Shown here: piece by piece, positions 138-33,618 of the stretch
Layout of the letters: the number at the start of each line of letters is the position of its first letter
How positions within the stretch are numbered: the first letter of the stretch is position 1
NCBI GenBank assembly: GCA_025558095.1
Contig: JAIVFI010000012.1
Coordinates: 682,001 to 746,000, forward strand
DNA from: Hyaloraphidium curvatum SAG 235-1
Lineage: Eukaryota > Fungi > Monoblepharomycota
DNA: 64,000 nt
Reading direction: 5' to 3'
Notes under the pieces: generated by a model
Told to the model about the DNA's origin: nothing
What the model saw: the letters and a program-made list of their open reading frames with translations, nothing else
Database searches by the model: none
Made by a program: the position numbers and the translations under genes

Positions 138-434
138 GGTGGCAGTAGGGTGAAGTAGTTCTATTTGATCTGGCTTCTTGGTCTACTTCTTTGGCGAGGA
201 ATAGGAGAGCGTTCGGCGGGTCCTCATGCGAAGCGTGCATCAGAAACCAGCCTTCATCATGCGGCCAACTATCGATCCACTTGGTAGAACGAATTCCACC
301 AATTGCACGTGATGCTGGTGCATAATCCCTGACTTTCGAATGTCGGGGGTCGGAGGGACCCTGGGACCGAATCGGAGGCGGAGCCAAGGGTCCTGCCGAC
401 GTCCGACCCTGGTTGCGCCCCCGAACGAAGAGAG

Positions 435-1735
435 ATGTCCGCCGCCGCCGCCGCTCCCGCTCCCGAGACTGAGGCCGCCGCCGCCCCCGCGGTGGCGCCC
501 GTCGCACCCGTCGGCGCTGAAGAGACCTCCGCCGCCGCCGGTGCTGCCGGTGCGACGCAGACGGCTGCCGCTCCCGTCGGCGATGCTGCCGCTGCCCCCG
601 TCGGAGACGCCGCTGCGGCCCCCGTCGGAGCTCCGGCAGTCGGTCCGGATGGCGCGCCTCTCGCACCGGTCGAGATCCCGCCGGTCCTCGGGCCCGACGG
701 TACGCCTTGTTGCGCGACTAGCCGACCGGATCTCTCATGATGGCTCCATTGCAGGCAAGCCCCTTCCCGAGCAGGAACAGAGCGAGCTCATGAAGGAGGT
801 GACTGCCAACATCACACACATGTGAGTCAGGAGCGAGAAGGCACCCTGATGGGAAGGGCTGACGGCTCTGCAGGAACCCGCTGCCCCAAGACATGGACAA
901 GGAGGCCGAGAAGGCCGCCGAGACGATCAACAACATGATCAACCCCGGCAAGGGCATCGACATCATCGTCCCCAAGTCCATCATCGACAAGGCCAAGGCC
1001 ATCGCGGTCCTCCACATCGTCAAGGTTGCCTGGGGCTTCTCCGGACGCGCGGGCTCGGGCGTGATTGTCGCCAAGCTGCCCGACGGGACGTGGTCCGCGC
1101 CCTGCGCCATCGGCATGGTTCGTTTACCGACTTGTGGGCCATCATTCGGAGCTGATCCGTTTTGAACAGGCCGGTGCCGGGTGGGGCGCCCAGGTCGGAG
1201 TCGCTGTGACCGACTTCATGTTCATCGCGACGACGGACGCCGGCGTCAAGGCCTTCTCGCGCGGGTTCAACGTGCAGTTCGGCGTCAACGTCGCCGTTGC
1301 TCTCGGCCCCATTGGGCGCGAGGGTGAGGTGGACATCATGCTGTCGGACTTTGCCCCCGTGTACACCTACTCGAGTGAGTGCCGTCCGAGGGGAGGAGAA
1401 GGAACGGATCACTGATCGTACCCGTCGCTTGCAGAGACCAAGGGCCTCTTCGCCGGCGTTTCGCTCGAGGGCAGCGTCCTGCTCCAGCGCTCGAGGGCCA
1501 ACGAGGCCAAGTACGGCAAGGACGTCACCGGCGAGATGATTCTGACCGGGAAGGTTCCCCATCCCAAGGGGAGCGAGGTAGGCCGGCAGAGATGGCGATT
1601 TCTTCCCATCCAACGCAACGACGCCCTCCCCAGAGCCTGTACAAGGCCCTCGAGGAGATGGACAAGAGGGCTGCGGAGCGGGCAAAGGCGGCCGCGGAGA
1701 AGATGAAGCCGACCTCGGAGGCTCCCGACTTCTAG
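435..1735 (+). CDS. SYLF/Ysc84 (Las17-binding, SH3YL1-like) domain protein, spliced, with an Ala/Pro-rich N-terminus
   Basis: Exons give IVPKSIIDKAKAIAVLHIVKVAWGFSGRAGSGVIVAKLPDGTWSAPCAI, GWGAQVGVAVTDFMF and KGLFAGVSLEGSVL. GT-AG introns include 700-754 and 822-873. Confidence 0.9.
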
Positions 1736-1814
1736 ATTTGCTGGCTGTGCGGGAGACACCAACCACACCGTCTTTCCAGTCGCGAATCGCGCCGTCTCCG
1801 CGGCAGAGCACGCG

Positions 1815-2050
1815 ATGTCGTCCGCCAAAGCGCTAATGGACTTCTCCAACAAGGTCGTGGTCGTCACAGGCGGCGCGTCCGGGTTCGGTTTCGACCTCTG
1901 CACGCTCCTCGCCGCCCGTCGGCCGCGGAAGCTCATCATCGTGGACGTGAGCGCCAAGGGGCCCGAGGCCGCGAAGAGCCTGGCGAGCACGGGGGCAAGC
2001 GTCGAATTCAGGAAGGCGGATCTGGCGGATCCGAGGCAGATTAAGGCGCC
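1815..2050 (+). pseudogene. N-terminal fragment of a short-chain dehydrogenase/reductase
   Basis: A Rossmann motif VVVTGGASGFG followed by IIVDV and ADL is present. Similarity ends at ~2050 and no YxxxK catalytic exon was found downstream. Confidence 0.6.
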
Positions 2051-2347
2051 GAGAGTGAACGTCCCGCAGTCAAGTCATTCCTGTCGTCCATTCACGTGCA
2101 GCGTTTCGATTTAGTTCTGCGACGTCCCGAACATCTATTCCCGATGATTTTCGACTTTCTTCGGCTACTTCAGCACGGTTGAATCACGGTTGAATCACGA
2201 ACGGTCTCCTGTACCAGCCAGCGTGGCTGGACGTGCCCTGACTTTTATCCTTGAGAGCCCTCTCCTCCAGCACAGGCCCCAATCGCCCCCCTGCCACCTC
2301 CGGCCGCCGACCACCTCCGCCGCCGGGGATCCCGCTCTGCCGGCACT

Positions 2348-3763
2348 ATGCCGCTCACCGCGTCGAAGGTGCGCGGGCAACTGGCCGCGGCGCCGCGCGC
2401 GACTCACCGCGCCCCGCTGCCGCGACCCCCGCCCCGACAGGCTGCCCTCGCCGCGCTGGTGCTCTGCGCTGCAATCTCCCTCTTTAGTGCCACCATCGCC
2501 GATGCGCAGGGCGTGTCGCCGAACTCCAACAACCAGATCTGGGCAAAGGGCGCGACATGGTCGGTTCTCCCCGCCGCCCGCATCGCAGCCACTAACGCCT
2601 CCCCGCCCCCGCCGCAGCGTGGCCGGGCAGAGCGTCGGTCCCTGCTGCTGGTGCGCACTGGCCGCTGGGCCGCCGTCGTCGGTTCGGGCCCGATGACTCA
2701 CACGATCCCGCTACCCCACAGCGCGAGGCGCCCCAGGGTCGTCGTCTCCACAAAATTCACTACAAAGACCGCCGTCAAGACCGTGAAGCGCACCAGGACC
2801 GTCACCAGGACCGTCACGTCCACCGTGCTGAACCGCCGCCGTATGGAGCGCGACGTCGTGCCCGAGGTGGCTGAGCGGTCCCTGCCCGAGCCCGCGGTCG
2901 AGGAGGACAAGGTCGACGAGGCCGAGGTCAAGGACTCCCTGTTCGAGGTCGCTGAGCGTGCCGTCACCGAGGAGCCCGAAGCCGCCGACGTCGAGGTCGA
3001 GGAGTACCTCTCCGAGGCGCCCGGCCACGAGCTCTTTGCCCGCAACCTGTGCCCCGCCTGCCCCACCGGCATCAACCCCCGCCTCGGCACCAACAACAAT
3101 GGCGGCAGCGTCAATCTGTGCTGCCCGCGCTCGACCCGGTTCACCACCCGCACAAAAACGACCACTCGAATCAAGACGACGACGGTCAAGACCGCCACGA
3201 GGACGGTCACCACGACCACCACGCAGAAGGCCGCCGTCACGATCCCCGTTCTCGTACTCAGCGAGACCGTCCGCCGTGGGTCCACCCGCCCCCGTCCCGC
3301 CGCCCCCGCCTGACCCGCCCCCTCGCACACAGGCCTGGCCGCACGGAAAGGCGCACCGGTCATCTCCGTCAACGTCTATCTCCGCGGACCGAACGGCAGC
3401 ACCAACATCCTCGGCCAGTGCATCACCGGCATCGGCGGCACCTGCAACATCTACCTCCCGTTCCTCCTCAACCCCGGCGACGTCTACGAGATATTTGTCG
3501 AGCGCGTGGAGTCCGGCGCGACCTTCTTCACCGCCAAGGCCGACGGGCAGCCGCCGATCGGGGCGTCGGGGAACATCGAGGTCACCATCACGGTGGGTTG
3601 GGGTTCCCCGGCACGCGCGGCGTACGGGCTGACGCGCCGCCGTACGGCAGGAAACGAACACCGTGACCATCCGCCGCCGCGAGATCATCGGGCGGCGCGA
3701 CGCGGACGGCAGGTTCCGCCGGGCGCTCAAGGCGCTGGCGACGCCCGCGCCCCAGGCGTTCTG
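2348..3763 (+). CDS. Secreted Thr-rich protein with a CPxC...CC module (spliced); paralog of the gene at 61692-64000
   Basis: Signal-like ALAALVLCAAISLFSATIADA, Thr/Lys-rich tracts, an acidic spacer, LFARNLCPACP...LCCPR, and short GT-AG introns. Confidence 0.6.
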
Positions 3764-4154
3764 AGCCCGCGCCCCGGACAACCTCCTTGGCGGCTCGGGC
3801 TTATGGAGTCTGTATCGTGTTTGGGGGAAGGGGGATGGTTCTGCGGCGCAAGGTCGATCGGCGCGTCGAGGGCCTTGCTGGATCTGGCACTGTACGTCAC
3901 GGACTCGCCTCTGCTTCTATGTACGACTCGCTGTCTGCTGATTCTGAACACTGCTTGGGTCCTATGTATCTCTGATATCCTCGCTCGCTCGTGTGGGCCG
4001 TGTCGCCAATTTTTCGAGCTCCGCGGTCCAAGGGTGGGGCTTCCCGTCGTCCGGTGGACACCTTGCAGTTTCGCTGCTTCTCGCAAGGACGGGAATCGAG
4101 CCCGAAGCCTTGCGATCGAGCGTCGGCCGGCGCTGATGTGACACTGATGCCGCG

Positions 4155-5214
4155 ATGAAGAGGTTTTGCGCCGGCCGCTCGACATCTCTCTGGGCCAGGA
4201 CGGCACGGACGGAAGAAGCCACGTCACTGGGCTGCGGGCGGGGCGGCGGCGACCGCTCGGGCACCAGCGCCACTGAAGCGAACGGGACGGCGGCGTTTGA
4301 GGATGCTGCCGCACACAGTGCAGACGATCTCAGTTGCGCCGGATGGCCTGGGACTGGGCGCCCGGCTTCTAGATTGAAAGCGGACGCGGGCGGGAACGGG
4401 GCGAGGGGACTTGGCTGCACCCACATCGGCACGGACCTGCTCCGCTGCGCCCGGTGCGGTCTCGCGGGGTACTGCTCGCGCTTCTGCCAGGTCCACGACT
4501 GGGGGAGGCACAAGCTGCGATGCGGACCCGGAGGGGCGAAGATCCGCGGGCTATCGGCCACGGCGCAGCCTCCCAAACCGTGCGCGGAAGGGTGCGCATA
4601 CCTTACCCCGAGCGACGCCGTCCCTGACGATGATTTCCGAGCGTGGAAGCAGGGGATGGCGGAGAGGCGGTCGGCTGCTGGGCACGGTTCTTCGTCGGTG
4701 GTCCAAATGGTGCACGGGGCCCGTCGCCTTCAACGCCGAAACGCTGATCAACATTTTCGACAAGACTCTTAGCTTGACGGGGAAGTAATACGTAGGGCGT
4801 ATGTCTGGAAACTGCGATTCCTCAACTTCTATGGCGATCGGCCCTCAGGATGTCCCGGGCGTCCCTGCTCCGCCACGCACATCCTCGAAACCCGAATGAC
4901 TCCACAGAACCACACACCCAAACCGCCGGAAACGGCGTCAAAACCCCGTTCAATCGCTTCCTCGGACGTGTCGCGGCATGGCCGAGCCCGCACGGTGGCG
5001 GAGGCGGCCGCGCTTGTCAGCGCAGGAAAGCGCTGGCGACGTAGAGCAAGATCGCTCCGTAGCTCAGTGGCTTCGAGTATCGGTTGCGGGCCTTCGCACG
5101 ACACCAAGACTGCGGGTAGACGGCGCAGAGTTGGAGGAGTTCGGTAGAGATTCGGGCTCATCCGTTACAGGTAGGTATAGCACTCCCTCGTGCTCCGCCT
5201 CCGCCGAATACTAG
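4155..5214 (+). pseudogene. Degenerate MYND zinc-finger gene
   Basis: CARCGLAGYCSRFCQVHDWGRHKLRC is a MYND finger. Downstream coding-like sequence is broken by frameshifts and stops. Confidence 0.55.
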
Positions 5215-5463
5215 AAAAGGTGGCGAAGGCCCAACGCCCATGCTCCGCCGCGGAAACGTCCGCGGCGTCGCCCTTCCGAGGTGGAGTCCCCTGCGCTTCC
5301 AAGTGTGGCGCAGTCCGCATAGCCTCGGTCCCACAATCCCAATCGTCCGCCGCCATACGCCCCCGCTCCCCCGGTGGGCGAGGGCGTCCCATCCCCAACT
5401 GCGCTCGCCCTTCTGCTGCCTCTCCTGCTCCGGCCCGCCGCCGCCTCTTCCAGCGTGCAAATC

Positions 5464-6426
5464 CTACGGAGGGAGGTCATCGACCCCGCCACTGGCTTTC
5501 TCATCTGCCGACAAGAGCGCACCGCCTCCTACGGCGAACTGGAAGTCTCGCAGTGCGTCGGCTGGTGCACCAGCGGGAACAGCTCCTACTACGGCTGGCG
5601 GCTCGCGGGACGCGCGTCGCCGTGGGGTTACGAGTGCGGCAAATACAACGACATTGGAGGCCCGTCGACGTCGTGCGTTCGCTCCCCCTCGCTCGGGTGC
5701 GGGGGCGTACTCGATCGTCGAGAACGAACCGGGCATGCAAAGGTCGAGCCCGTGCAGGATGAAAGCCGTGAGCGTCATCAGCGGCGAGTAGCCCGACGCC
5801 AGGTTCCGCAGCGCGTTGGACAGCGCCCCAACGCCCGTCGTGACCACAGCATCGACTCCCAAAGGGCCTGCGACTCCCAGCGCGGGGGACCATGCAGACA
5901 GGTTGTCGACAAAAACGCGCAGATGCAGCCGCTTCTTGTCCGGGTCGTAGCGCGCCGATGCGAGGTGCAAATCCAGCTCGATCGGCCCCAGCAGCCCGCG
6001 GAGGGCGCGCAGCGCCCTGGCCGCCCAGCCAACCCTCTCATCCACCGACGCCGAAGCTTCCGGCCTCGCTTTCATTGCCTCAGCGTACTCAGCCCCCTCC
6101 TTCGTCTGCCTTCGGAGCATGGCGAGTATCTTGCGCGTCTTGCGGACGTACTCCGGCACCGCCTCGCTGTCATCTGCCAGCTCGGAAGTGCCCAGCACGG
6201 TCTCCGCAGCGTCGTTGAGCGCGACGGCCAGCGCGCGGCCGGCTTCTGTGGCGGTCGCCCCGGGACGCCCTGGCTCCTTCGGCTCCACCGGCGTTGCCAA
6301 GTCCAGCCGCGACTCGAGTTCGGACGCAAGCGAGGAGGCATCGGGAGAGTTGCTCGTAGTCGCCATGTCCTTCGAATGAGTTTTGTTGAGGAGCTTCGTT
6401 GCGTCTGCAGGAGAGAAGCTCGACAC
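5464..6426 (-). CDS. Hypothetical protein of unknown function
   Basis: 320-codon ORF with protein-like helical composition in its first ~240 aa and no recognised motif. The start is uncertain. Confidence 0.45.
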   Translation of the reverse strand: MSSFSPADATKLLNKTHSKDMATTSNSPDASSLASELESRLDLATPVEPKEPGRPGATATEAGRALAVALNDAAETVLGTSELADDSEAVPEYVRKTRKILAMLRRQTKEGAEYAEAMKARPEASASVDERVGWAARALRALRGLLGPIELDLHLASARYDPDKKRLHLRVFVDNLSAWSPALGVAGPLGVDAVVTTGVGALSNALRNLASGYSPLMTLTAFILHGLDLCMPGSFSTIEYAPAPERGGANARRRRASNVVVFAALVTPRRRASREPPAVVGAVPAGAPADALRDFQFAVGGGALLSADEKASGGVDDLPP

Positions 6427-6454
6427 GTCAGCGCTTGGCCGCGCCTACGCAACA

Positions 6455-7260
6455 CTCGCATCGGTTCCGAACCTGATGACTCCCGCCGCCGCCGCTTCCG
6501 CACCCGCACCGGCAGCATGCCGATGTTATTGTCGGCGGCGGCCGCGGCCATTGCGGAGGGACCTGCCTGGCCCGCAAAAGCGCGCCCGGACCGCCCAGTG
6601 ACTGTCTCGCCGAGCTCGAGCCGCAAGCCGACGGCGGTGCGAGAGTCAGAGCACCGGGCCGTTCCGGTGCTTCCCTGGTCCTCGATGGCGCCGTCGGCGT
6701 GCTCCCACTGCTTTTGCTGGACGCGGCGGGCAGCTCACTCGGACGCGGGGCTTCTCTCTCTCGTGCGGGCATCCGGCAGCCGGCGCAGAGCCCTGCGACG
6801 GAGCGTTGGCGGATGCTGATGCTTCGTTGGGGGCCGCCCGCCGGCAGCTGGCCATGTTATTCCGAGGATCTCTTGGGACGCGGCGGCGGTGACGTGGACC
6901 GACACCGGCGCCGCGCATCGTGGGCCGACTGGGAGAATCATCAATGCTGCCGTGACGGGCTCAGTCTGCGCAGCGTCGGATGGGACAAGCCGGCCTGGAT
7001 CGCCGGCCGCTTGGTACCGGCTCGGACGAGCGAGGCGGCTGCGGTAGGGGACCGGACCACCGGCGCCGCATGCCACGGGCTCGTCCGCGGCATTCCAGAG
7101 GATGCCGCTAGAGCCCTTTAAAGCGTGCGGCGCGGGGACGAAAAGCGGGGCCGTCTGCAGTTTCGGCGGCTTCCCAGTACTCAACCCGGGCAGGGCGATC
7201 CGAGCTTGCGGCGCCGTCGTTCTGCGGATGGGCAACATGCTGCTCAAAGACCGGCACGCT
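6455..7260. repeat. Leader plus hairpin-unit array, copy 1 (~4 units)
   Basis: Leader blocks are shared with 10360-10800. Left arms GGACCG(G)AC..CCGGCGCCGC occur at ~6896 and ~7048, with degenerate units at ~6775 and ~7197. Inner stem example: GCGGCATTC/GGATGCCGC. Confidence 0.8.
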
Positions 7261-7369
7261 GGCCATGTGGATGATCGATGATTGATACGACCACTTCCGC
7301 CTCCAGATTGCGACACCGTCAAGTCAGATGCACGGCGGTCGTCCCACGCTCTTTCCGCCGCTGGTTCCC

Positions 7370-7960
7370 TCACGCACCCCCGAGGTTGATCGAGATCCCC
7401 CTCCCCAGCTTCCGCCCGAACGCCAGCGCGACCCACAGATCGAAGATCCCGTCCACGAGCGGCGCCTTGTCGATCCCGCCCACGCGCACGGGCCTGAACC
7501 CGCACTCGGCGATCAGCTGCTCCGCCGCCGCCTCGGCCGCCGGCTCGGCGGCGTAGAACAGGTCGCACTTGACCGACCCGTCAGGAGCGGGGGCGGCGAT
7601 GGTCTCGGCGGCGACGGTGTTGAACGCGCGCACGACGAGCGCGCCGGGGGCCGCCTCGGCGATGGCCTTGGCGATGTTTGCAACGGTCTTCTTGGTGTCG
7701 TTGGCAGGCAGGACGACCGTCTTCCCGGCGAGCAGCGCCGCGAGCTCCTTTGCGGAATCGACCGCCGCGCCGCCCGGGATGGCCAGCGCGACGGCCTCGC
7801 TGTCCGCCACGGCGTCGACGACCGCGCGCACGGGGACCCCGTCCTGCTCGTTCTCGCCCTCGGCGTGCCGCGAGCCGAGGATGACGGAGTGCCCGGCTGC
7901 GAGCCAGTGTCCGGCGAGCGCGCGCGCGATGTGGCCGGTGCCGACGATGGCGATCTTCAT
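7370..7960 (-). CDS. NADP oxidoreductase, F420-dependent-like (NAD(P)-binding) family; intronless
   Basis: MKIAIVGTGHIARALAGHW...VILGSR, VVRAFNT and GFRPVRVGG motifs. Confidence 0.85.
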   Translation of the reverse strand: MKIAIVGTGHIARALAGHWLAAGHSVILGSRHAEGENEQDGVPVRAVVDAVADSEAVALAIPGGAAVDSAKELAALLAGKTVVLPANDTKKTVANIAKAIAEAAPGALVVRAFNTVAAETIAAPAPDGSVKCDLFYAAEPAAEAAAEQLIAECGFRPVRVGGIDKAPLVDGIFDLWVALAFGRKLGRGISINLGGA

Positions 7961-8738
7961 TCCGGCGGCGGGAGGGCGGGCGGGGCGGGCGGGTGCGGTG
8001 TGGAGTGCGGCGAAGGCGGGGAGTGTTGGATGGTCGGAGGGAGGGCGATATATATCGGAGAGGCGGATTATGAGAGAGTGCGGTGGGTGCGGTGGCTGGT
8101 TCACGGTCTGGACCCGGCCCAGCTCCGAGCGACAGCTCACCCATCACAACCCCGGCAACCTCCTCGCGGGTACGTCCCGCCCACGCAGCTGGCTCTGTTT
8201 CATTGGCCTCGAACCTTGCGGTGGTGGGAAGGAGTGTGTCGGCTTCGGGACGGGGGCGGCGGTCGGGGCCGGACTCGAGAGGCGCCTACGGCGGCGTCTG
8301 ATGGTGCCGCCGTGCATGGTCGTTGTGGACGCATTGGGCTTGGGCTACGGACGTGCGATTTCCAGGGGCAGACTGGCTGTGCGGACCGATAGCCGTCTGC
8401 ACCGCTCACCGTGCCACGGCGGCAAAGCGCCAAACAGACGCCTGGAGAGGGTAAGACTTTCCGAAAATAGGCGTAGTGGTTGCTAGGAGATGCTGTAGGA
8501 CGATATATGCCCCCGCCGGATAGACTGGCCAGCTTTGGGGCGCCGCAGCAATCGGATGTCGGACTTGCACACGGATCGGACGGACGAAACCGGGGTGGCG
8601 GCATTCTAATGTGCTGCCGAAGCCGCGCTGTACGGACTTCTCTATCTCCTGGTGGGCCCGTAAGGGCCACGCCCAGGCGAGGCCGACGAGAAGGGACTTG
8701 CGCGCTCTTCAGCACAAGCACGTCCGGCTAGACGCAGG

Positions 8739-10200
8739 ATGGAGACGGCCGACAAGCGCGTTTTCGAGGCTTTCGAGCAGCGTTTTACTAATGCGGAATG
8801 GCTCTGCTTGTTCCCCGAGGGGCTCAAGGACCCGGGGCCCCTCGACGCGCCGTTGCCTCCCGACCCTGCCGCGGATCTCCGCATGGTTTCTCCCGTCACG
8901 CGTGCGACGCTGGTCCGCGAGCTGCGCCCGGAGTCGCTGCCCGCGGCGGCCGCGGTGGCGGTGCAGACCGCGCTGGTGCCGCACTCTGCACTTCTGGTGC
9001 CGTGGATTCTGGCCGGGTCCGCGGGCATCGCGGTCGTCACAATCGCCGCGTTGTTCGGCAACGCCGTTCTGGGCGTGTTTGGGACGCCGCAAATGGCCGC
9101 GGGCATCGCCGCCGTCCTGTTCTACGCCGTGCTCAGCGGCGTGGCCGGCTCGACCACCGTGCTCCCCACACTCCTTACGCGCCACGCCGCGCCCTCGCAG
9201 AGGCCGCGCGACGCCGACGCCAGCTCGCACCCGTACGCGCCCATCGCGCGCTGGCTGCAGCTCAGGCGCTTCGCGGATGGCACGGAACCCACGCGCCTCC
9301 TCGCGCACGACCCGCGGGACAAGTTGTGCCCCTGTCCGGACCCCGCGTGCGCAGGAGGGCTGCCGGCCGCCGCCGGGTACTGGCGCACAGCCGAGTTCGT
9401 CGTCAGGGTGCTCGCGGTCTACGCCCTCTACTTCTCTCTGTTCTACACCGCCTTCGTCACGCTCGGCGGCGTGATCTGGCACTCGTGGTGGGGCATAGCC
9501 GCCTCCACGTTCGCCCTCATCAGCACCTCTGGCTTCGCCGCCTTCGCCATCGCCCTCCGCTTCGGCGGGAACCCCCCAGCGCGGCGCCTCCTCTTCCGCC
9601 TGCGGCACCGCGCCCTCGTCCTGTGCCTCCGCTCCATGCTGGACCACTACCGCCTCGCCCCGCACGACGCCGGCGAGAAACCTCCCTGCGACAAATCCTA
9701 CCTCGCCCTGCACGCCGCCCTCTCCGTCTCGTGGGACGATCGCACGGTGCCCATGACCTCGGCCGGCTTCATGGCGGTGTACTTTGCCGGTGCCGCGGTC
9801 GGAGGGATCATCAACGCCACCGCGGGGTCGTGCGTCCCCGTGTGGTGCTTCCTCCTCCTCGCGCAGATGCTGGTTGCCGTCACGGTCGACATGGTCAATG
9901 CCGCGGCGACCAACGAGGAGATCTCGGCGGCCGCGGAGCTGTACCTCCGCGCGGGGGCGGAGCTCCAGCTGCTGCTCCCGTTCCACGCCGACCCCGAGCG
10001 CACCGAAATGGCGTCCCGCGCGGCGGGGCTGGGGATGTTTGCCAACGCGGGGGGGAGGAAGCCCAGGTTGGCGCGTGGCAGTCGATTTCGGGGTCGTGCG
10101 GACGGTCCTGGTGACGGCCTTCACGGTGTTCATCGGGTTGTGGACGCTGCTCAGGTCGGCAGGGGTGGACGTGGTGATGGATATGGCGTGCAGGGGGTGA
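8739..10200 (+). pseudogene. 7TM family member 1 (GRL/DUF3537-like), with a frameshift at a G-run near 10050 (real lesion or assembly error)
   Basis: HDPRDKLCPCPDPAC motif and hydrophobic helices. The family C-terminus (GWRVAVDFGVVRTVLVTAFTVFIGLWTLLRSAGV) lies in a different frame. Confidence 0.75.
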
Positions 10201-10359
10201 TGCGTGTCTTTCCGAGCAAATTGAGCGCGGGGGTTCGTCTCCGCCAGCTCACCAATCAACCCCCGCTCATTGCCCTCGTTCCGTGCCCACGGGGACGCCC
10301 TGCGCTGCCCACGAACGGCAGCGCACTCTTAGCATCGCTCTTTACAGTGATGCGGGGAA

Positions 10360-12100
10360 ACGCGGTCGGGTTCGGACGGGCGGAACCGGGCTGGGGAGGC
10401 ACCTTCGACTCCGAGGGCACGGGCCGGGATGCGGCGGCCGGGGAAGCTTCCGACCTCGACACCGGTGGCACCCCGATGTCCATTGTCGAAAATTACAGCC
10501 CGGCCGCAGAACTACCGGACCCGTCGAGCAGCGCCGCACGCGGACCGGACCGATGACTGTCTCGCCCTCTCGAACAAGGCATCGGTGGCACAGAGGCAGA
10601 GCGCCGGAAGTTCCGGTGCCCTCTCCTCTGTAGACTGTCGTCGGCATGCTCCGAGCTGTTTCGCAGGACGCCGGAGGGGACCTCGGACGCGGGGCTTCTC
10701 GCGCGGGCAGGGGACCGATTGGGCAGCAGCCGGCCCGGAACTCCGCAGCGCAGCGTTGGCATGGGCCGACGCCAACCCTTTAGGCACTCAGATCGGACCG
10801 GCAGCTGGGAGACCCGGTCGGACTCGGGACTGTTCGAAACGGACGGCGTGAGGACACGTCATCGGGCTTCCAGGCAGCGGAGCGGATGGGGCGCCGGCGC
10901 CGCGCAAGCTTTCCGGTCGGCGGCATTCGGAGACGCTGCCAATCTTCTAGGTTGTGCGGCGCCAAATGGTCTGGGAAATGGGGTTTCGCCTGGTCGCGAA
11001 AAGCCGGCGGACGGATGCACGGATGCGTGGGACCGGACCGCCGGCGCCGCGCATTGCGTTCGGGTCGGCGGGGTTTCTTGATGCTGCCATGGCCAGAGTA
11101 TGCAACGCGCGGTGCTACAGGGCCCGAGAAGCTTTCGAAACGCAGCCAGGGACGTCGGAAGTGGTGGTGGACGATTGATCGACGGGACCGGACGACGGCG
11201 CCGCGCATTGCGGCACTTCGGCAGCTTCTGATGACGCTTCCCCACGGAGCTCCCTTGCGCGGCGTCGGATGACCTGGGAAAGGGATACATTGCTCGCCGG
11301 AACCAGACGCACGGTTGCGTGGGACGCGACAGGATCGCCGGCGTCGCACTTCTTCCGCTGACAGGCGTCGTTCCCTGATGATGCCTCTGTAGAACTTTGG
11401 TCGCATAGCGCGGCGCCGGATGGCCGGGGAATCGTTCATGACCAGAGATCAAAGATTGCGCTCAATCTGGACTGGGCATGAGAACGGGATCGGATCGGAC
11501 CGCGGGCGCCGCGCATCCACCGCGGACGGGCCGCGTCTGTAGATGCTGCCAGCACATCTGTGAGGATGTCGCGGCCCCGGCCGGGCCTGAATCGGACCGG
11601 GGCGAGCGGCGCTTTGCGAGTCCTGGACGAAGGACGAGCGTGCGAGGTGAGGATGGATCGCAGGCGCCGTGCCCTGCTGAAAAGCTGGCAGCTTTTGGAT
11701 GATCCTGCCAGGGAGTCCAGTTGCCGCTCGGGTGGACTGCATCTACCTGGCGTCGGCGGCATTTTGGGATGCCGCGGAGGGCCGGGATGGGGTCGTGCGG
11801 CTTCCCAGACGGACCAGGGCGATTGGGACGCGGACGGGACCGGACCGCGGGCGCCGCAACTCCACCGCTCATGGGCAGCATGTGCGCGTGATGCTGTCCT
11901 CCCATCCGTCGGTGCGGCGCCTTACGGCCTGGGATCTGTCGCGAAGGCTCTCTCGACCTCCGACGGACCGGACGTGCGGACGCGCAGATCCAAGGGGCCG
12001 GACCGCAGGAGCCTTCTCTCTCTGGCGACAGGCGACATTTGTACGATGCCGCCAGATTTACTGGCAACGGGCGGCGCCGGATGGCCGGAGATCGGTTGGG
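10360..12100. repeat. Leader plus hairpin-unit array, copy 2 (~9 units, period ~145-185 bp)
   Basis: Left arms at ~10884, 11029, 11184, 11328, 11493, 11651, 11836 and 11994. Each is followed by an inner stem (GGCAGC-like...GATGCTGCC-like) and usually a right arm GCGGCGCCGGATGGCC-like. Confidence 0.85.
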
Positions 12101-12278
12101 CTGGACCCTGGGACGGGCGACCCGGGGACACCGGGGCTTCGGGGACGAATGGACTGTGCGGGATAGAGTCCAAAATGCAGTTCGGCTGCGTTGAACAGAG
12201 GTCAAGCGTCCCCATGTCCACGGGAAGCCGTGTTCATGGCGCCACGTCGGCAGATCCTGCGCAGCGCCGCCTGCCGCG

Positions 12279-15200
12279 ATGGCGAAGGGATTTCGAGCCC
12301 CCGAACAACGAAACCGCCAGGTGGCACCGTTCCCCAAGCTGCTCTCCCCCAGCAAGAGGCGGCGCCGGTCCGGGCTCGACCAGCTGCTCGCGTACGCGCG
12401 CGAGGGCGGCGTCGAGCCCGGCCGGGACGGCGAGCGGCGGCGCACGCGCGCGGTGGGCGCCGTCGACGCGGCGGAGGTGCCGCCAAACGTGGGGCGCGCG
12501 CGGCAGCCTCTCAGCCCCACGCCCGTGTCGCCGCCGCCCAACGGAGTTCTGAGAGATGGGGCGGGGAGGCGGGGAGGAGTGGATGGGGCGCCGGGGGGCG
12601 TTTCCTTGAATGCCGCGCCCGTCGTCAGGAGGAGGCGCCGCGCGGCCTCGGACGCGTCGACCGACTCGGAGAGCGACGCCGCCGAGCCGCAGTACGAGAC
12701 CGAGGAGGAGGACGAGGGCGTCGACTTCGAGGACGCCCTGTCGACGACGCCCGGCAGGGGCACGCCCGCCCCCGCCACGCCCACTTTCTCGGCGCCGCAG
12801 ATCTCGACCACGCCGACGGTGCGCGAGCCGCCTTCAGTGGCGGCGAACTCGCCGCGGCCCGCCGGGCCGCCGACGCCGCACTTGCCGATAACTGCTCCCG
12901 GGATGGCCGGGAGCCCAGCCGGCATCCCTGCCGGGGGACCCATCGGACAACCGGCGCCCCCCGGCCCCGCCAACCCTTCCCCCGCCCTGCCCCCCGGCCT
13001 CACCACGACCCCCATCTACCGCGGCCGCGGCCGTGGTCGCGGACGAGGGCGAGGCAGAGGCAGAGGCCGCGGCAGGGGCGCCTCCCTCTCGGTCCCTCGC
13101 CCCCCCTTGGGCCCCATGACCACCCCCCACCCCCCGCTGGCATCCCGCGGCAGGGGCGGCAAGCTCCCACTCTCCCTCCCCCCGCTCTCGATCCCGCACC
13201 CCCTTCCGAACCTGCACCGTCCAACACCTCTGGGGACCGGCACGGGCACGGCCACCGCTACCTTCCCCTCCCTCTCCGCCACCCCCACAACACCACCCAG
13301 CGACACCCCCCGCCTCCCCGGCCCCGTCGTACCCCCTCCCCCCACCCACGCTCCGCAGGTGCAGCAGCAGAGGGGCGTGATGCTCCCCGGCCCTGTGGCC
13401 TTCCCCCTGGGACCGAGGAGGAAGAAGGTGGTGCAGCCTGTGCGGAGGGAGTACGCCACCCGCTCGCGTCACGATCCCGCGGGCGGGCCGGAACAACCCC
13501 CCGCACCCGCGCCCGGAGGGGCAGGCGCCCCGCAGCGCTCGGCGAGCGTGTCGCTGCCGCTCCCCTCGCACGGCATCACCCTCTCCGAGCTCCCGCCCGA
13601 CCTGGACGCGCAGCTGGAACGCCGCCGCACCCTTTCGTCGGTGGACTACGGCCGCGGCCGGGCGTGGGGCGGCGCGGGAAAGACGCCCCCCGACGGGCTG
13701 TTCCCCAGCCCCGAGTTCCCGCCCGCGGGCGCGGCGCCCGAAAGGGGGGCCAGGCACGCGGCGGTGGCGGGCAAACCCGCCCCGGGGGGCGGCGCGAAGC
13801 CGCCGCCCGCGCACGCGAGGGAAGTGCCGGGGCCGCCGCCGCGCCCGGTGCCGCCGCGCCTGCCGCCGCGCCTGGTGCCGGCGGGACGGACCTGCGGGGT
13901 GCTGCTGTTCCGGGTCGAGCGGAGGAGGGACAGGCCGAAACCCGCGCCCGGACCCGTCGCGGTCGTCGAGCACGTTCCGGGGCCCGCGACGCCGGTCTCG
14001 GTGCCGGGTGCGAGGGCGGAGCTGGACACGCCGGCGACGGCTACGGGGACGCCCGGGACGGGGGACACGCAGGCGGCGACGGCCGAGAGCCAGGGCGGGA
14101 GGACGGAAGCCAGCGCGTCGGGGACGCCGGAAGGGACGCCCGAGAGGGTCGGGACCCCCGAGGTGGGTGGCCGCGGTGCGGGGCGGGGGAGGGACAGGCT
14201 GATGCGCCGCGCGCAGGTGGTGATGCCCGAGGTCGGCGCGTCGCCGCGCGAGGCGGAGGGGAGGCACGCCGCGGAGGACGGGGCGCCCGTGCCGAAGGAT
14301 GGGGAGGCGGAGACGGAGGACGCGAAGATGGACGAAAAGCCGCCGACCGCCGCCGCAGCCGAGGAACGGGAGGGGCAGCTTGTGGCGGAGGGGCAGCCCG
14401 GGCCGGCGGAGGAGCAGCCCGCGGCGGAGGAGCAGCCCGCGGCTGAGGAGCAGCCCGCGGTGGAGGAGCTGCCCGCGGCGGAGGAGCTGCCCGCGGCGGA
14501 GGAGCTGCCCGCGGTGGAGGAAAAGACCGCGGCGCCGGAAGAGCCCGAATCCGCTGGGGAAGCGAAAGCCACCGCTGAGCCGGCGGACGAGGAGATGCCG
14601 GCCGCGGATCCCGCACCGGAGGAGCCTATGCCCGCGCCTTCTTCCCTGGAGGCACCGCAGGACGTTGCCGCTGCGCAGGAGGTTGAAGGCGGTGCGCACG
14701 ATGACGCGATGCAGGTCGACGAGGCGCCCGCGGAGGATGGCAAGCTGGACGCGGAACCGAAGCCGGACGGGGCGTCGGCGCCTGCCGAGGCCGCACAGGT
14801 GGCCAAGCAGGAGCAAATGCCCGAGACGGGACGGGAGGCGACGCCCCGGGAACCGACCCCGCCGGCGCAGGCTGATCCAGCGCAGGAGGTGCCCGTCGAG
14901 CAGGAGGCGCCGGCCGAGCAGGCGCTTCCGGTCGCGCAGGACGGACCGCCGCCCGCGGTCGAAGCGGCGCCCGCTGCCACGTCGCTGCCCGTGCCGGCAC
15001 CCACGCCCGTGCCGGCGGTACCGGGAGGGCCGCTGACGCTCGCTCCGATCGTGACCAAGAAACGTGAGTTGCCCCTCCCGCCTCCGCGTTGCGACACCCG
15101 CTCATTTCGGCCCCAGCAACCAAGATCATCCGCCCCATCATCAAGCGCGTCATCCCCACGCGCTCCGCGACCGCGGCGCAGGAGGCGCTGAACCCGCCGC

Positions 15201-18200
15201 CCCCGCCGCCTCCTCAGCCCGCCCCCCTCCCGGCCGCAACCCCCGTGCAGCGCCCCAAACCCGCGCCGCGCCCCCCGAAACCCGCTGCCGTCACCACTCC
15301 GCCGGCCGCTCCGCCCCCCCGCCCCGCCCCGCGGCCCCCGCCCCCGCCGCCGGTGCTGGACCCCTTCCCTGTGCGCATCCAGGTGCGCCCCGCCAACGGG
15401 CCCCCGCGCAAGCCGCGCTGGACGACGTGCCACCGCTCGACCGCCGAGGACCACGTGTTCGTGGACCGCGACGCCGGGCTGCTGGTTCCAGGGACGGGGT
15501 ACGTCGTCCGCGTGGGGTACGCGCTGCCCGATACCCCGGACTCGGAGGTGCTCTGGACCGACGTCGAGCAGAGCACGCTTCCCTGCGCCACCCCCTCGCG
15601 CGCGCTCGCGCTGGAGCTGGAGCCGCTGCTGTCCGTACCCGGTCGCGCCGAAGGGTACCTTGGCTTGGAGCCCAAGCCGGGGAGGGAGGACGTGCTGCGG
15701 ATGCTGTGGGACCCGCCGGTGGGGAGCCCCGAGGAGTACTGCCCCCACCTCGAGTACGCGCTCGAGGCGAGGTGGGAGTGGGAGGGGGAGGAGTTGGAGA
15801 TCGGGGGGAAGGTGGAGGTGGGGGAGCTGGTGGACCTGGGGGACGTCGAGGAGAAAACGGGGGAGGAGGAGGCCGTGGGCGAGGAGGTCGGCGGGCAGGG
15901 TGGGTCCGAAGATGAGGCGTCGGGCGATGCGACTGCTGACGGCGCGCACGGCGACCCAGACTACCGCGAGGTCTACCGGTCGCACGACGCCGGCGCTGGC
16001 ATCTCGGTGCGTAACCTGCTCCTGGAGCTGCTCGGCCCCGACCGCGTGCTCCGCATCGCCGAGGCCTACCGCCCCGACGCCAGCATCACCAGCCACACGC
16101 GGCTGCGTTCCATCCGTGGGCTGCGCGTCGGGTTCCGCCTAAAGTGCACCAACCCGGCCTCGTCGGGCGCCGACGTGCTCGCCGAGGAGGAGGTCGAGTG
16201 GTCGCTGGATCCCAACGGCGTGGGTGCGGTCAGCTGGGCCGCCGTCGCCGCGCGCAGGCTGCAGTACCCCGGCCACGCGGCGGTGATCGACGCCAGCAGC
16301 GCGCCCGTGGAGCAGCAGCTCGGCGCGTCGCCGCCCAGGGCATCGTCGCGGTGGCATCGCGGCAAGTTCCTGGTCAGGGGGTTGGAGCCCGAGGCCAAGG
16401 AGGCCAAGGTCCACCCCGGGGCCAGGGAGCTGCGGGACGGGGACGAGCCGGGGAGGCCACCGTCGCCGCCGCCGCTACCGGATGCGGACATGGACCTGAG
16501 GCACGTGATCGCGCCGGCGTGGTTCTTTGACGAAGACGCGCCGGAGGAGGACGAGGAGGAGAGCGCCGCTGGGGCGGAAGGAGAGGCGGCGCGGGAGGAC
16601 GCGGAGATGGCCGAGGCGGGGGGGCCTGAACAGCAGCTGCCCGGCGACGGATCTGCTGTGAGGGGCGACGGCGAGCCCGGCGACGTGCTTCCGCCGCTGA
16701 CGGCCGAGGAGGAGCGCAGCATGCAGATGGTGCTCGACGACCTGCTAGCCGCCGCAAGCAATGGCGAGTTCTCGCTCGAGGCGGCGGAGGGGCTCGAAGC
16801 CGGCCTGGCAGGCCTGGCCGGTCTGCCGCTGCTCACGGCGTCGGCGGTACAGCACGAGCCCGAGGAGATGGACGAGGCGGAGGAGATGCACGAGGTCGAG
16901 GAGCCGCGAACGCCCGAGATCGCAGCACCGGTGCCTATTTCCGCGCTGGAGATGGCGGCTGGCGCCCAGACGCCCGTTTCACCGCCGCCGCGGGTGCTGC
17001 AGGGCACGCCGGAGCGCGTGCAGTCGGACTACGAGCTCGTCAAGGCGCTGCAGGACCTCGAGAGCCTCCTCAGCGCACACGAGATCATCATTCCCAGCAC
17101 CTCGCATCCTGCGGCTCCACGCCCTGCGGAGCAGGCACAGCTTGGACCCCGGCCGCCGCAGGTTCGGGGCTCGCCTTCGCGTTCGCCGAGGAGGCCGCGG
17201 CCCGTGGACTCGACCAAGGGCAAGGGCCGCCTACAGCCGCCTCCTCCCGCGCCGGTAGTTGCGCCGCCCCCCCTTGCGCCTGTGCTTGCGCCGCCCGAGC
17301 CCCCGAAGGCGCCCGAACCCGTTCCCGAACCGTCGCCTGCTGAGGCGCCGGAGCCTCCCGCTGAGGTCGAGGAAGAAGAGGAGGAAATTGATTCGGGCAC
17401 GATCGAGGAGGCTGCCGCCGTGGCTGCGTCGTCGCCGGCGAACCAGCGGGCCGTCGTGCAGCCGACCTTGGAGGACGCGGCGGAGGAACAGGAGCTTCCG
17501 GCGCCCAACGGCCACAGCAACGGCGATGGTCACGAGGACGACACCGAGTCGGAGCCCGAGGAAGTGGCCGCCGCGCCCTCGGAGCCTGAGGAACGGGTGT
17601 CGCGCGGGAAGCGGCAGCGGTCCGAGGCAGAAGAGCCGCCAAACGCGTCGCCGAAGCGGCCGAGGCGGGAGGTCGAGCACTCGCAGCCGCCTCCGCCGCC
17701 GGAAGCAACCGTGAGCGCCGAGTCGGCCCCGCCGCCGGAGCCCGAGGCGGACGTCGACATGGAAGGAGACGGCGAGCAAGAGTCAGAGTCGTCTTCGGAG
17801 GCGCCCGAGATCAAGCAGCCCAAGCCCATCCTCACCGCCAAAGCCGCGCTCAAGGACCTCCCGCCGGCGACGCCCTCGTCGGCCGAAGCATCGGCCTCGG
17901 CATCTGCCCCCTCGGGAAGCGCCGGCTCCCAGTCTACCTCCGCCGCAGGCCTCACAAGCCACCTTCTAGAGCCGCCCGAAAAGCCAAAGCGCGGCCGCCC
18001 GCCCAACTCCTACTACGTCGCCCTGCAAAAGTACCAGCAGCAGCAGGCCCTTTTGCGCGCCGCCGCCGAGCGAGACTCTTCGGATCAGGCCGAGAATCCT
18101 TCCTCGGAGCCTCCGGCCGCCGCCTCCACCCCACCTTCCCTCGCCCCGCCTGCCAAGCCGCCCGCCACGGTCGCCACCAGCAGGCCGGTGGAGCGGTCGG

Positions 18201-19063
18201 ACTCGCCGGTTCCCTCGCAATCGGACATGTCGGCCTCGGCGCCTCCCGCCAAGAAGCGCCGCGGCAGGCCGCCCAGGCCGCCCAGGCCGCCCAACCCCGA
18301 GATGCCCGAGGCCAGCCCAGGCCGCGGACCCCGCTCGGCGACGTCCTCTCCCGCGCCTTCGGACCGCCGCGGGCGGGGGCCATCGGCCAACGTGGATCGC
18401 CCCGCGTCGGCGCCAGTGGACGCGGGCGGCGTCGCTCCCCGCGGTCGCCCAGGCCGCCAGCCCAAGGAGTCTTCGACGGCGTGGATCTTTCAGCTTCCCT
18501 TCGGCCGGCAGATTGCGGTGTACAATTCGATGCCTTCGTACGAGGGGTGGTGGCTGGCCCGGGCCATGTACTACCAGCCCGTCATCGTGACGGACGGGGG
18601 CTCGGACCCCGGATCGCGGCGGAGCTCCCTCGGCGACGACCACGACGACGCGAGCGAGGACGACACGGGCAGCGAGGGCGGCATGCGGCGCGCGCACCGC
18701 GTGCTCCCGGTCGCCAAACGCATGCTGCGGCTGAGGATCCACTACGAGGGCTACCTGGACAAGTACGACGAGTGGATCGTGCTCGACGAGGCGGGCAGGG
18801 AGCGGATCCGCCAGTTCAAGAAGGCCAAGCCGTCGGCGGCCGAGCTCGGGGAGCTCAAGATCGGGGGCAAGGGCGTCGAGGACGACGAGATCTGGGCGGA
18901 CGCCGAGCGCGCTCAGCGCAAGTATGGTGGGTCGACCTCCCCGGCGCTGCGGCATCCATTATGTCTAATCCTTGCCCTCCATTCAGCGCTCAACAAGGAC
19001 GAAAAGCTGAAGATTTTGGAGGGGGAGCCGGTGATGATTGCGCCCGGCGGCGTGAAGAGCTGA
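12279..19063 (+). CDS. Large Pro/Glu-rich chromatin-associated protein with AT-hooks and a C-terminal Tudor-knot/chromo-barrel (spliced; start uncertain)
   Basis: GR repeat; AT-hooks KPKRGRPP and KKRRGRPP; WWLARA...LRIHYEGYLDKYDEWI. The two long ORFs are joined by an intron near 15064-15116. Confidence 0.7.
14406..14521 (+). repeat. 18-bp coding tandem repeat (AEEQPA/AEELPA, ~6 copies)
   Basis: GCGGAGGAGC(A/T)GCCCGCG units in tandem. Confidence 0.85.
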
Positions 19064-28332: not shown

Positions 28333-29847
28333 TCAAGCCCGCGGCGGACACACGAGCTCGCCCGTCAGCACGACCCCCAGCCCCCGGAGCACGCTCCACA
28401 GCCCCACCGCCAGCGTCACCGCGGTCACCAGCAGCGTCCTCAGAGCGCCAAAGGTCACCACGAACCCCAGGAACCTGGCCCTGTACCTGTCGGCCCCGGT
28501 GTACCCGGTCAGCACCTGCACGTCGGCGTCCAGCGCTGCGGCCAGGGCCGGGTCCGCGCGGGAGGGGCACGCGAGGAGCTCCCGCCGGAGATCGGCCAGC
28601 TCCTGCGCCGCGTCGAAGTACAGCGAGCGGATGTCGTCGATCTGGGCGTTGGCGGCTGCCACGTGCACGAGGTCGAAGAGGAAGGTGGCGAGGAGCTGGT
28701 AGAGCAGGTAGGCCGGGTACAAGGCGGGGAGGCACGCGCCGGCGGCCATGTTTGCGCAGCCGGCGACGACGGCAGCGGCGACGGGGATGAGCAGAGGCGA
28801 AGACGCATTGTAGCTCCTGATACGGTTCCGCCAGCCGGAGGCAAAGATGCGGTGCAGGTCCATGTAGGCTGCGCGCTGCGGGTTCTCGGAACCTGTCCAG
28901 GAGCCGGAAAAGGCGGCGCTGCGGTACCACTCGACCAGTGGCGTCAGCGCCAGCCTCATCGCGCGGCGGTTGATTCTGCGGGACAGCTGGAGGAGCGGAA
29001 GGTTCGTCGAGAACCGACCAAAGGCGATCGGGATTCCAAAGGCAACGGTGCCTGCGAGAAAGAACGCGCACATGAATGCAGACCAGGGAGTGGCCCAGAT
29101 TGCGAGCATCATGGGAGGGAAAATTGAGGCGCCGGCCAGGAAGAAGGTGGTCATCAGGAGGTAGATGCCGAACTTGAAGGCCGATTCTGCCACCCGGGCC
29201 ACACCTGCGCGGAGCGGGATGGTTCCCGCGCACGATGCGTTGCTGCACGGGCACAGAAGGTCCTTCGGATCGTGCTCAAGCAGGGATCCCGCAGTTGCCG
29301 GGCGGCGAGCCGCGAGCTGTATCCACCGGGCGAGCCCGGCCGCACCGTGGGAAGAAAACTCTGGTGAAGACTGCGGCATCCCCGACGGTGAAGCGGATCC
29401 AACGGTCTTGAAGGTGCTCCGGTACACCGAGAAGATCGAAACCAGGAACGTGCAGGCGGTGCCCATCACAAGGAAGGCTGCCATCCCGACAGCGAGCTGC
29501 GGAACACTGTAGTACCCGCCGCCGAAGACGCAGACCACGGCCGTTAACCCAATGAAGCCCAGGAACGACCACGTGGCCCGGACGAATGTCCTTCGCGACC
29601 ACGGGTGCACAAAGACCTGCAGCCGCACGGAAGCGGCCAGGGCTCCCGTTTGGGGGCGCAGCGCGGCCAAAAGCGCCTCCAAAGTGAGCGGCCGCTCGGA
29701 GCGCACGGCGGCGGCGGGATCCCCTGGCGGCGAGGCCGCGGGGAGGTCGGGGAACCACTCCGGCGCCGCGGGGAGGACGGCGAGCCACTCGTCCTCGTCG
29801 AGGCGAAACTCCGCGGGAGGAACGTCGATCTTTGCGTCGCCCGACAT
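28333..29847 (-). CDS. 7TM family member 2 (intact, intronless)
   Basis: HDPKDLLCPCSNASC, seven hydrophobic segments, and RARFLGFVVTFGALRTLLVTAVTLAVGLWSVLRGLGV. Confidence 0.85.
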   Translation of the reverse strand: MSGDAKIDVPPAEFRLDEDEWLAVLPAAPEWFPDLPAASPPGDPAAAVRSERPLTLEALLAALRPQTGALAASVRLQVFVHPWSRRTFVRATWSFLGFIGLTAVVCVFGGGYYSVPQLAVGMAAFLVMGTACTFLVSIFSVYRSTFKTVGSASPSGMPQSSPEFSSHGAAGLARWIQLAARRPATAGSLLEHDPKDLLCPCSNASCAGTIPLRAGVARVAESAFKFGIYLLMTTFFLAGASIFPPMMLAIWATPWSAFMCAFFLAGTVAFGIPIAFGRFSTNLPLLQLSRRINRRAMRLALTPLVEWYRSAAFSGSWTGSENPQRAAYMDLHRIFASGWRNRIRSYNASSPLLIPVAAAVVAGCANMAAGACLPALYPAYLLYQLLATFLFDLVHVAAANAQIDDIRSLYFDAAQELADLRRELLACPSRADPALAAALDADVQVLTGYTGADRYRARFLGFVVTFGALRTLLVTAVTLAVGLWSVLRGLGVVLTGELVCPPRA

Positions 29848-29972
29848 GTTGGATAATGACGAAGCGCGGATACTGTAGCACGCGAAGGACAGCCCGTCAG
29901 ACAGCAGTCTGCGATAGGAATCTTCGATCCTTTGCCACTTGGCCGTCCCAACTCGAGCCCGGGCTGCACGCG

Positions 29973-31616: not shown

Positions 31617-31806
31617 TTGGCCGGAGCGGCAAGCAGCGGGTGACCGGGATGTTCATCCATCAGGGCGGGATCATTACGTTGCTTGAGCATGCCGAAGACT
31701 TCTGATGTCAGATGTCCATGTACAGATTGCATTGCCTCCCCGGGTCCAGGCTGTGCACGATGGAACATTCCTCGTTGCGTTAGCCGGCCGCCCTCCCATT
31801 CGCGCG

Positions 31807-33433: not shown

Positions 33434-33618
33434 TTGGCGGCGCGGCCAGGATGATCGGACTTTCGGGCGACAGGTTGTACCCTACCACCGTCCGAATCAC
33501 AGGTAGAATAGACGAGGGCTTCGGCGGAGTGTTGGTCGGAACCGCTGTCCCGCTCCTCGCCCAACCCTCGCCCGTCAAAACCGCTCGCGACTGCCCCCTC
33601 CCCTACGGGCCTGAAGGG

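Follow-up and report, generated by a model that had tools for sequence, protein, structure and literature searches.

Two tandem arrays of hairpins in the genome of Hyaloraphidium curvatum, an early-branching freshwater fungus, are each preceded by a related leader of about 350 nt. What is this leader? The initial annotation proposed that it is a promoter or the 5′ domain of a long structured non-coding RNA (ncRNA), or else the terminus of a non-autonomous element. We examined these possibilities in the window, by which we mean the whole 64-kb stretch of DNA analysed. It is intron-rich, eukaryotic-type sequence with a GC content of 59-78%, and all counts of leader and unit copies refer to these 64 kb. 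Locus A comprises a leader at 6494-6850 and an array at 6893-7141, and locus B comprises a leader at 10446-10812 and an array at 10881-12085.

Homology between the two leaders

The leaders of loci A and B lie on the plus strand and are homologous. Local alignment of 6494-6811 with 10446-10761 gave a score of 106, compared with 23.0 ± 2.9 (maximum 33) for 300 dinucleotide shuffles. By blastn the leaders are 71.8% identical over 181 nt (E = 2e-9), and their global identity is 60.6% over 348 columns. The homology had been thought to start at 10360 and 6455, but it actually starts at about 10446 and 6494, and the DNA upstream of the leaders is unalignable (84 of 300 shuffles were equally good). 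The four collinear blocks described in the initial annotation are common to both leaders, at 6507-6534/10460-10488, 6588-6611/10542-10566, 6693-6705/10640-10652 and 6738-6756/10682-10700.

Block 1 of leader B (10460-10488, plus strand) could form a small 5-bp hairpin, as could its counterpart in leader A, with folding z-scores of -1.8 in A and -0.4, not significant, in B. Block 2 (10542-10566, plus) carries a GGAC motif of the same form as the 5′ flank of the array units, followed by an invariant 13-mer. At 10682-10746 (plus), an invariant 19-mer (10682-10700) opens helix L3 (10689-10746), in which 17 of 18 cells are paired and the folding z-score is not significant. Neither the 13-mer nor the 19-mer has another site in the 64 kb with one mismatch allowed. 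A motif of 22-23 nt is repeated in locus A, at the start (6508-6530) and end (6840-6861) of the leader and behind the array (7249-7272). An equal score was reached by 19 of 1000 shuffles, and the motif is absent in such form from locus B.

The structural signal of the leader resides in local hairpins

Both hairpins that the initial annotation had named in the leader are present where it placed them, with pair probabilities of 0.94/0.94 and 1.0/0.72 in the two copies. The first exists, but it is merely the tip of a larger hairpin of 70-74 nt, L2. In leader B, L2 (10577-10646, plus) is 70 nt long and has a single loop and 25 bp (z = -3.1; 0 of 200 shuffles), with an outer 8-bp helix at 10583-10643 around an inner 8-bp hairpin at 10601-10619. 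L2 of leader A (6626-6699, plus) is likewise a single hairpin, with 29 bp and a z-score of -4.7. In size and layout L2 matches an array unit, but its sequence is different. Hairpin L4, with 8 bp and a 4-nt loop, lies on the plus strand at 10753-10772 in leader B (z = -3.4) and at 6803-6822 in leader A (z = -3.9), and it is kept in a third locus, C, described below. L2 and L4 are significant without use of the alignment; the folding z-scores of L1 and L3 are not significant.

Comparing the leaders column by column, 22 helices of at least 6 bp and 3 of 8 bp are possible in both on the plus strand, versus 10 and 0 on the minus strand. Four helices are kept in leaders A and B, comprising 33 pairs with 65 of 66 cells paired. 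Among the 11 pairs that vary, 10 stay paired, 9 by a one-sided change and 1 by a two-sided change. With two copies only, and helices picked from the same sequences, this covariation does not beat the shuffle control (262 of 500 shuffles were equal). By z-score, L2 folds about equally well on the minus strand, and swapping its arms between copies revealed no real preference (summed energies of -83.0 kcal/mol for own and -81.3 kcal/mol for swapped arms). The description of the whole leader as structured held for A, which is unusually stable on the plus strand (z = -2.9), and did not hold for B (z = -0.03 on plus, -2.3 on minus). The structural signal of the leader resides in its local hairpins, not in the leader as a whole.

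Arrays of hairpin units follow the leaders

Array B (10881-12085, plus) consists of eight units with a pitch of 144-185 nt. Its hairpins lie at approximately 10896-10963, 11043-11116, 11197-11266, 11341-11418, 11505-11578, 11664-11734, 11849-11920 and 12008-12078, all on the plus strand, and a lone extra apical hairpin is found at 11756-11777 (plus). Array A (6893-7141, plus) has two units, with hairpins at 6907-6977 and 7061-7133; a third unit at 7147-7214 (plus) is doubtful, with a z-score of +0.8, and is missed by the unit model. Each unit is laid out as a conserved stem, a variable segment of 13-17 nt, a conserved stem-loop, a variable segment of 15-24 nt and a conserved stem. Pairwise identity among units is 45-68%, with conservation of 83% and 69% in the two strands of the basal stem, 66% and 79% in the apical stem, 36% and 27% in the middles and 30% in the loops.

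Across the 10 units, the 19 consensus pairs are paired in 86.3% of 190 cells, a value reached by 1 of 500 shuffles, with the structure derived from the same alignment. Two-sided changes account for 10 cells (0 of 500 shuffles), and slid controls are 33-58% paired. On the plus strand, the unit stems hold 24 G-U and 6 A-C cells (P = 0.0014), or 18 and 5 when the closing pair is left out. C>T substitutions exceed G>A in stems (15/140 versus 6/150); outside stems the balance is unclear (9/96 versus 9/140). The G-U excess and the stem-limited C>T excess point to the plus strand as the folded single strand. In addition, the 5′ and 3′ arms of a unit fold better with each other than when swapped on the plus strand (P = 0.020) but not on the minus strand (P = 0.38), and the own arm is the best partner in just 2 of 10 rows.

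The folds of individual units vary. Eight of the 10 fold with one loop and 2 with two loops; the folding z-score is below -3 in 4 units and weak (-0.3 to -2.3) in the other 6. An MFEI of 0.76-0.95 combined with a single loop is found in both L2 hairpins and in 4 of 10 units. None of 1618 fixed 72-nt tiles elsewhere reaches at least 0.75, a comparison biased toward the hairpins, whose ends were chosen.

Further copies are confined to 8 kb

A unit model built from the 10 units recovered an eleventh, outside the training set, at 4252-4347, with 36.5 bits and E = 1.7e-5, compared with 16.3 bits for the plus-strand row ranked below it. It belongs to locus C (4034-4347, plus), which consists of this one unit and the 3′ part of a leader, with an L3-like helix and L4 at 4120-4139. 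Alignment of 4188-4408 with 10823-11032 scored 80.5, versus 47.5 for the best shuffle. Locus C is without the 5′ part of the leader and continues into an ORF at 4155-4772 (plus), which starts inside the locus, has a low codon score and encodes a partial MYND finger without the first cysteine pair. The exact protein of this ORF is absent from the protein collection, and one protein search returned none. A possible decayed locus D is more tentative (8130-8640, plus). Its sequence is similar to that preceding leader B, and two hairpins of the apical type (8290 and 8597) follow without a leader. Its alignment score was 49.5 against 48.5 for the best of 100 shuffles, the unit model gave a non-significant 13.1 bits (E = 0.97), and the apical-hairpin scan behind it also yields chance-looking rows, 10 on the plus and 6 on the minus strand.

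All copies lie on the plus strand within the 8 kb from 4034 to 12085, between unrelated genes, and the remaining 52 kb contain none. Units lie behind each of the two full leaders and also behind the partial one of locus C. Local duplication, with cassettes gained and lost (1, 2 and 8 per locus), is the best explanation for the origin of these loci.

Could the loci instead be old non-autonomous elements of the DINE/Helentron type, with a conserved block, central tandem repeats of about 150 bp and, in locus C, a captured MYND fragment? In the available part of PMC9957191, DINEs have conserved blocks around central tandem repeats, which in DINE-TR1 are about 150 bp long. The order of a conserved block followed by such repeats, the unit spacing of 144-185 nt, the position of the loci between unrelated genes and the run of locus C into a partial MYND finger all suit this idea. 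However, the elements as described there differ from the present loci, which share no second conserved block at the 3′ side (175 of 300 shuffles aligned the DNA downstream of A and B equally well) and reach no high copy number in the window, being confined to 8 kb and one strand. The units, only 45-68% identical, are structurally constrained, their pairing kept with a strand bias. We saw no terminal inverted repeat or target duplication, and the ORFs scanned include no transposase family. The proposal that the leader is the terminus of a non-autonomous element therefore gains no support, and we regard an element of this type as distinctly unlikely.

The genes around the loci have features of their own. 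Three genes are interspersed with the loci, in the intervals separating C, A, D and B (5467-6366, 7373-7960 and 8739-10200), and are single-ORF calls without introns, unlike the genes at 340-3764, which have many. The gene directly upstream of leader B has a single named relative, a Hyaloraphidium curvatum hypothetical protein with 42% identity. The gene starting at 8739 belongs to a lineage-specific membrane-protein family with five more members at 28348-34587 and 49482-50936, some with stops or frame breaks. Right behind array B lies a very long gene rich in Pro, Ala and Glu (12279-19063, plus) with no Pfam family. Farther away, a 713-nt duplication of 75% identity joins 45405-46112 and 51172-51868, the second copy encoding an F-box. 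Pfam matches unusual for a fungus, to an amiloride-sensitive sodium channel, an M60 peptidase and an EGF-like domain, occur at 39559-40506, 54934-56628 and 61692-63953, all on the minus strand.

The leader carries no coding signal

A decayed gene, the alternative that the initial annotation had itself raised, found no support: the leader has frame-breaking gaps, intergenic-like codon scores and no Pfam match above the cut-off. Only 2 of the 10 gaps in the alignment of leaders A and B are multiples of 3. The mean best-frame codon score was -4.1 in A and -4.8 in B, close to intergenic DNA (-5.3) and below two untrained genes (+1.7 and +5.3), under a model that was trained on genes of the window and is imperfect, as the untrained control region 63000-63600 also scored -3.2. 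Among 22 six-frame ORFs over the leaders, none passed the Pfam cut-off, and the lone row had an E value of 0.2.

Public gene calls do cover locus B, with P0151 over the leader and P0153 over the array. P0151 (605 aa) enters leader B solely via a frameshift at 10073-10075, and the last 41 residues of a paralogue match the other frame at 78%, ending at 10197. The membrane-protein gene from 8739 has a frameshift right before its conserved C-terminus, and the public call reads through 10198-10556 into leader B. P0153 (219 aa, on the minus strand of array B) is an arginine-rich singleton with no Atlas hit. Both of these calls over locus B look spurious.

These two calls, and one unit lying in frame inside the ORF at 4155-4772, are what would favor a decayed gene for a repeat protein. 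Against it, the frame is broken by gaps, unit half-lengths fall in all three phases, P0151 reaches the leader via the frameshift only and P0153 is a singleton with no Atlas hit. In addition, the best 150 of 324 matches to the ORF at 4155-4772 center on the MYND finger, and when these 150 were compared with loci A and B by tblastn, the rows among the matches listed were just marginal (E = 0.025-0.049). We consider a decayed repeat-protein gene extremely improbable.

Contigs join the leaders to their arrays

Two sequencing runs, X1 and X2, cover this stretch, and neither is on record as RNA. X1 is a single study, possibly of the isolate used for the assembly. Of the 15 joints listed for it, six are GT..AG joints, at a depth of 10.5-11.6 in a neighbouring gene. 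Therefore, X1 contains spliced RNA. Its gap-free contigs include 6621-7473 (depth 13), 10648-12032 (11.8) and 10280-10579 (4.1). The first two bridge the 3′ part of a leader and its array without an intron; they carry no information on strand, start or level, DNA may have contributed to them, and 6621-7473 extends into the end of a convergent gene, 7373-7960 (minus). X1 leaves 8124-8691, approximately 6316-6620 and 10580-10647 uncovered, the last coinciding with L2 of leader B; these gaps do not enter our argument. The share of X2 is small; one of its contigs begins at 6493, which does not assign a start site.

Because unspliced contigs join the 3′ part of each leader to its array, we think it more likely that the leader is RNA than that it acts only as a promoter. 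Of the two functions that the initial annotation had put side by side, the ncRNA domain agrees with the non-coding sequence, the one-strand helices and the unspliced contigs. A promoter alone fits poorly, since the contigs include the conserved part, whose base pairing is preserved with G-U changes. Loci A, B and C contain neither TATA nor AATAAA.

Could the loci instead be cis-regulatory, as a structured 5′ UTR or an element near the promoter of the next plus-strand gene? Loci C, D and B end within about 200 nt of plus-strand frames (the MYND ORF at 4155-4772 and the frames at 8739 and 12279), and a weak MYND-like trace is found at 12242-12290 (22 of 300 shuffles were equally good). However, locus A is followed by the convergent gene at 7373-7960 (minus), the downstream genes are unrelated to one another, and among the contigs listed none joins array B to the next gene. 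A cis-regulatory role of this kind is very unlikely.

X1 yielded several other signals. At 6446-6666 its depth is 45.2 at 80% likeness versus 3.79 at 90% in the overlapping bin 6420-6703, which perhaps reflects a highly expressed leader copy elsewhere, or just a run rich in GCC (6483-6500). For a Ysc84-family gene (874-1084) and a threonine-rich gene (2540-3250), contigs of about 80% likeness are far deeper than the exact ones, which suggests strongly expressed paralogues. A contig in 1966-2721 has five GT..AG joints from 2054 to 2721, linking a short frame at about 1815-2054 with the gene at 2348.

A candidate precursor of hairpin small RNAs

Taken together, we think it highly probable that this is a non-coding element in which selection acts on RNA structure of the plus strand. 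These loci most likely represent a real, undescribed family of leader-headed genes for hairpin-cassette RNA, most likely microRNA-cluster-like, with membership of that class only putative. Within this family, we tentatively favor, at somewhat less than even odds, the leader as the 5′ domain of a polycistronic precursor of hairpin small RNAs, for which processing is predicted. Homology, the lack of coding signal, conserved helices, a single orientation and unspliced leader-array contigs count toward this reading.

How might such a precursor work? The plus strand would be transcribed from near 6494 and 10446, probably by RNA polymerase II, since T runs lie inside leader A and array B and the loci have no shared B box. 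The long RNA is predicted to be cut into different small regulatory RNAs, one per 70-nt hairpin cassette. The basal stem, the apical stem and the GGAC-rich linkers may mark the RNA for an RNase III/Dicer-type enzyme, and the variable middle would supply the target sequence proper to each cassette. The leader would provide shared handling signals, with L2 as a putative first cassette from another sequence family.

As for the fold-back without secondary stems or large loops that is expected of miRNA precursors, both L2 hairpins and 8 of 10 units fold with a single loop, but just 4 of 10 units have z-scores below -3. The location is non-coding, with no Rfam match near the cut-off, and two annotated ORFs overlap locus B. 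The inverted conservation (66-83% in stems, 27-36% in middles) argues against the small-RNA reading, as known miRNA families have the opposite pattern. The weak z-scores in 6 of 10 units and the two loops in 2 of 10 also argue against it. No near-perfect target site for the unit arms was found in the window; the best had 3 mismatches in 21, close to shuffled arms. As for the processing enzymes, PMC12663654 lists a Dicer for Gonapodya prolifera, which belongs to the same class, and a search of 12 of the 13 files of its supplement found no entry for Hyaloraphidium. Well-supported fungal hairpins are short and animal-like according to the available text of PMC9757828.

Alternatively, the RNA may work intact as a scaffold or sponge, in which the apical hairpins and GGAC-rich linkers each bind a protein and the leader is a unique functional domain. 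Conservation in the stems and not the middles is what this model expects, the contigs run unbroken through the arrays, and the unit number varies from 1 to 8. An apical hairpin alone at 11756, and perhaps at 8290 and 8597, suits a protein-binding module. GGAC occurs 47 times on the plus strand and 6 times on the minus strand, against 14.1 expected, mainly in linkers, but coding DNA of the window has a similar strand bias (19 versus 0 in 14001-15000). Moreover, a binding loop would not require a rod of fixed 70-nt length whose middle arms are partly co-adapted, and the loops are poorly conserved (30%). An intact scaffold is a possible but rather unlikely explanation.

The layout of a conserved stem, variable segment, stem-loop, variable segment and stem also recalls a dual-guide cassette, in which two stems hold open a target-pairing pocket, as in H/ACA or TIGR RNAs, and the leader loads a protein. 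Several middles pair poorly, as such a pocket would. However, box C (RTGATGA) is absent from both strands of A, B and C, box D (CTGA) is scattered and not placed by unit, and ANANNA is not behind the hairpins. The 3′ variable strand has no fixed length and the arms are partly co-adapted, and no Nop-domain, nuclease or recombinase Pfam family was found in the 36 and 60 ORFs scanned (60 of 114 listed). We give dual-guide cassettes little credence.

Other candidates were set aside. H/ACA guide RNA was rejected with 4 ANANNA in A and 4 in B, none positioned behind hairpins, and no Rfam match. A hammerhead retrozyme or ribozyme repeat was rejected because just 2 of the 8 units of array B contain CTGAnGA, which also occurs once ahead of leader A, and Rfam gave no ribozyme match. 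For telomerase RNA, with TTAGGG as the assumed repeat, there is one AACCCT in B and none in A, C or D. For a Pol III or tRNA-derived SINE, the window has no tRNA, a B box occurs just at 10832 in locus B, and T runs lie inside leader A and array B. Comparison by eye with consensus features led us to drop HDV-like ribozyme, SECIS, Y RNA and attC readings.

Discussion

Animal polycistronic miRNA clusters carry several hairpins per transcript, and so do the present arrays. Scaffold RNAs such as NORAD, Firre, the Xist A-repeat and CsrB combine a unique domain with a variable number of hairpin modules and a recurring short motif in a long ncRNA, as the present loci would. The present loci differ from them in that there is no sequence match, the motif lies in linkers, the loops are unconserved and several paralogous genes are clustered.

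Among described fungal genes, mi/milRNA loci are the closest in form to our preferred small-RNA reading. In the available part of PMC9757828 they are like the present units: intergenic, short, single-loop imperfect hairpins on one strand. The present arrays differ from the loci described there: they have a structured leader of 350 nt in common, their stems are constant and their middles variable, and as many as 8 cassettes follow one another at regular intervals. The main text of that paper contains none of the words 'cluster', 'polycistron' and 'chytrid'.

A further possibility is that these are programmable guide-RNA arrays, in which a constant scaffold would present exchangeable guides to Argonaute or an unknown protein; such a layout would be nearer to CRISPR or TIGR than to described fungal small-RNA genes. 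In the accessible portion of PMC12045711, TIGR arrays likewise repeat a unit in tandem within one precursor, each copy with two variable segments set between parts that are conserved or paired. In contrast to TIGR units as presented there, the present units are eukaryotic, measure about 155 nt rather than 36 nt, have no box C/D and no fixed lengths of the variable segments, and have no Tas or Nop gene among the nearby ORFs scanned. We consider programmable guide arrays unlikely.

Database searches returned no relatives in the collections covered. Rfam gave only chance-level rows, far below the cut-offs, over 5000-13000 and 3700-5000. Pattern scans found 0 and 1 loci in metagenomes, 1 and 1 in viral contigs and 5 Streptomyces loci in prokaryote genomes. 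Apart from the seed itself, the similarity of these 8 loci to the leader and unit profiles was at chance level (best score 20.6 bits, E = 0.013). A plasmid collection gave no blastn match. All these collections contain few fungi, so the negative results say little about relatives. For Monoblepharidomycetes, the open-access literature searched yielded neither a structured ncRNA family nor a cluster of microRNA type.

If the RNA works intact, it would be an undescribed modular lncRNA. If the cassettes are diced, as the preferred reading predicts, a deep branch of the fungi would possess a family of polycistronic genes for hairpin small RNAs, which would bear on the single versus multiple origin of miRNA-type genes. 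In plants, new guides arise via inverted duplication. The constant-scaffold, variable-middle design, if true, would be a route to making guides unlike that one.
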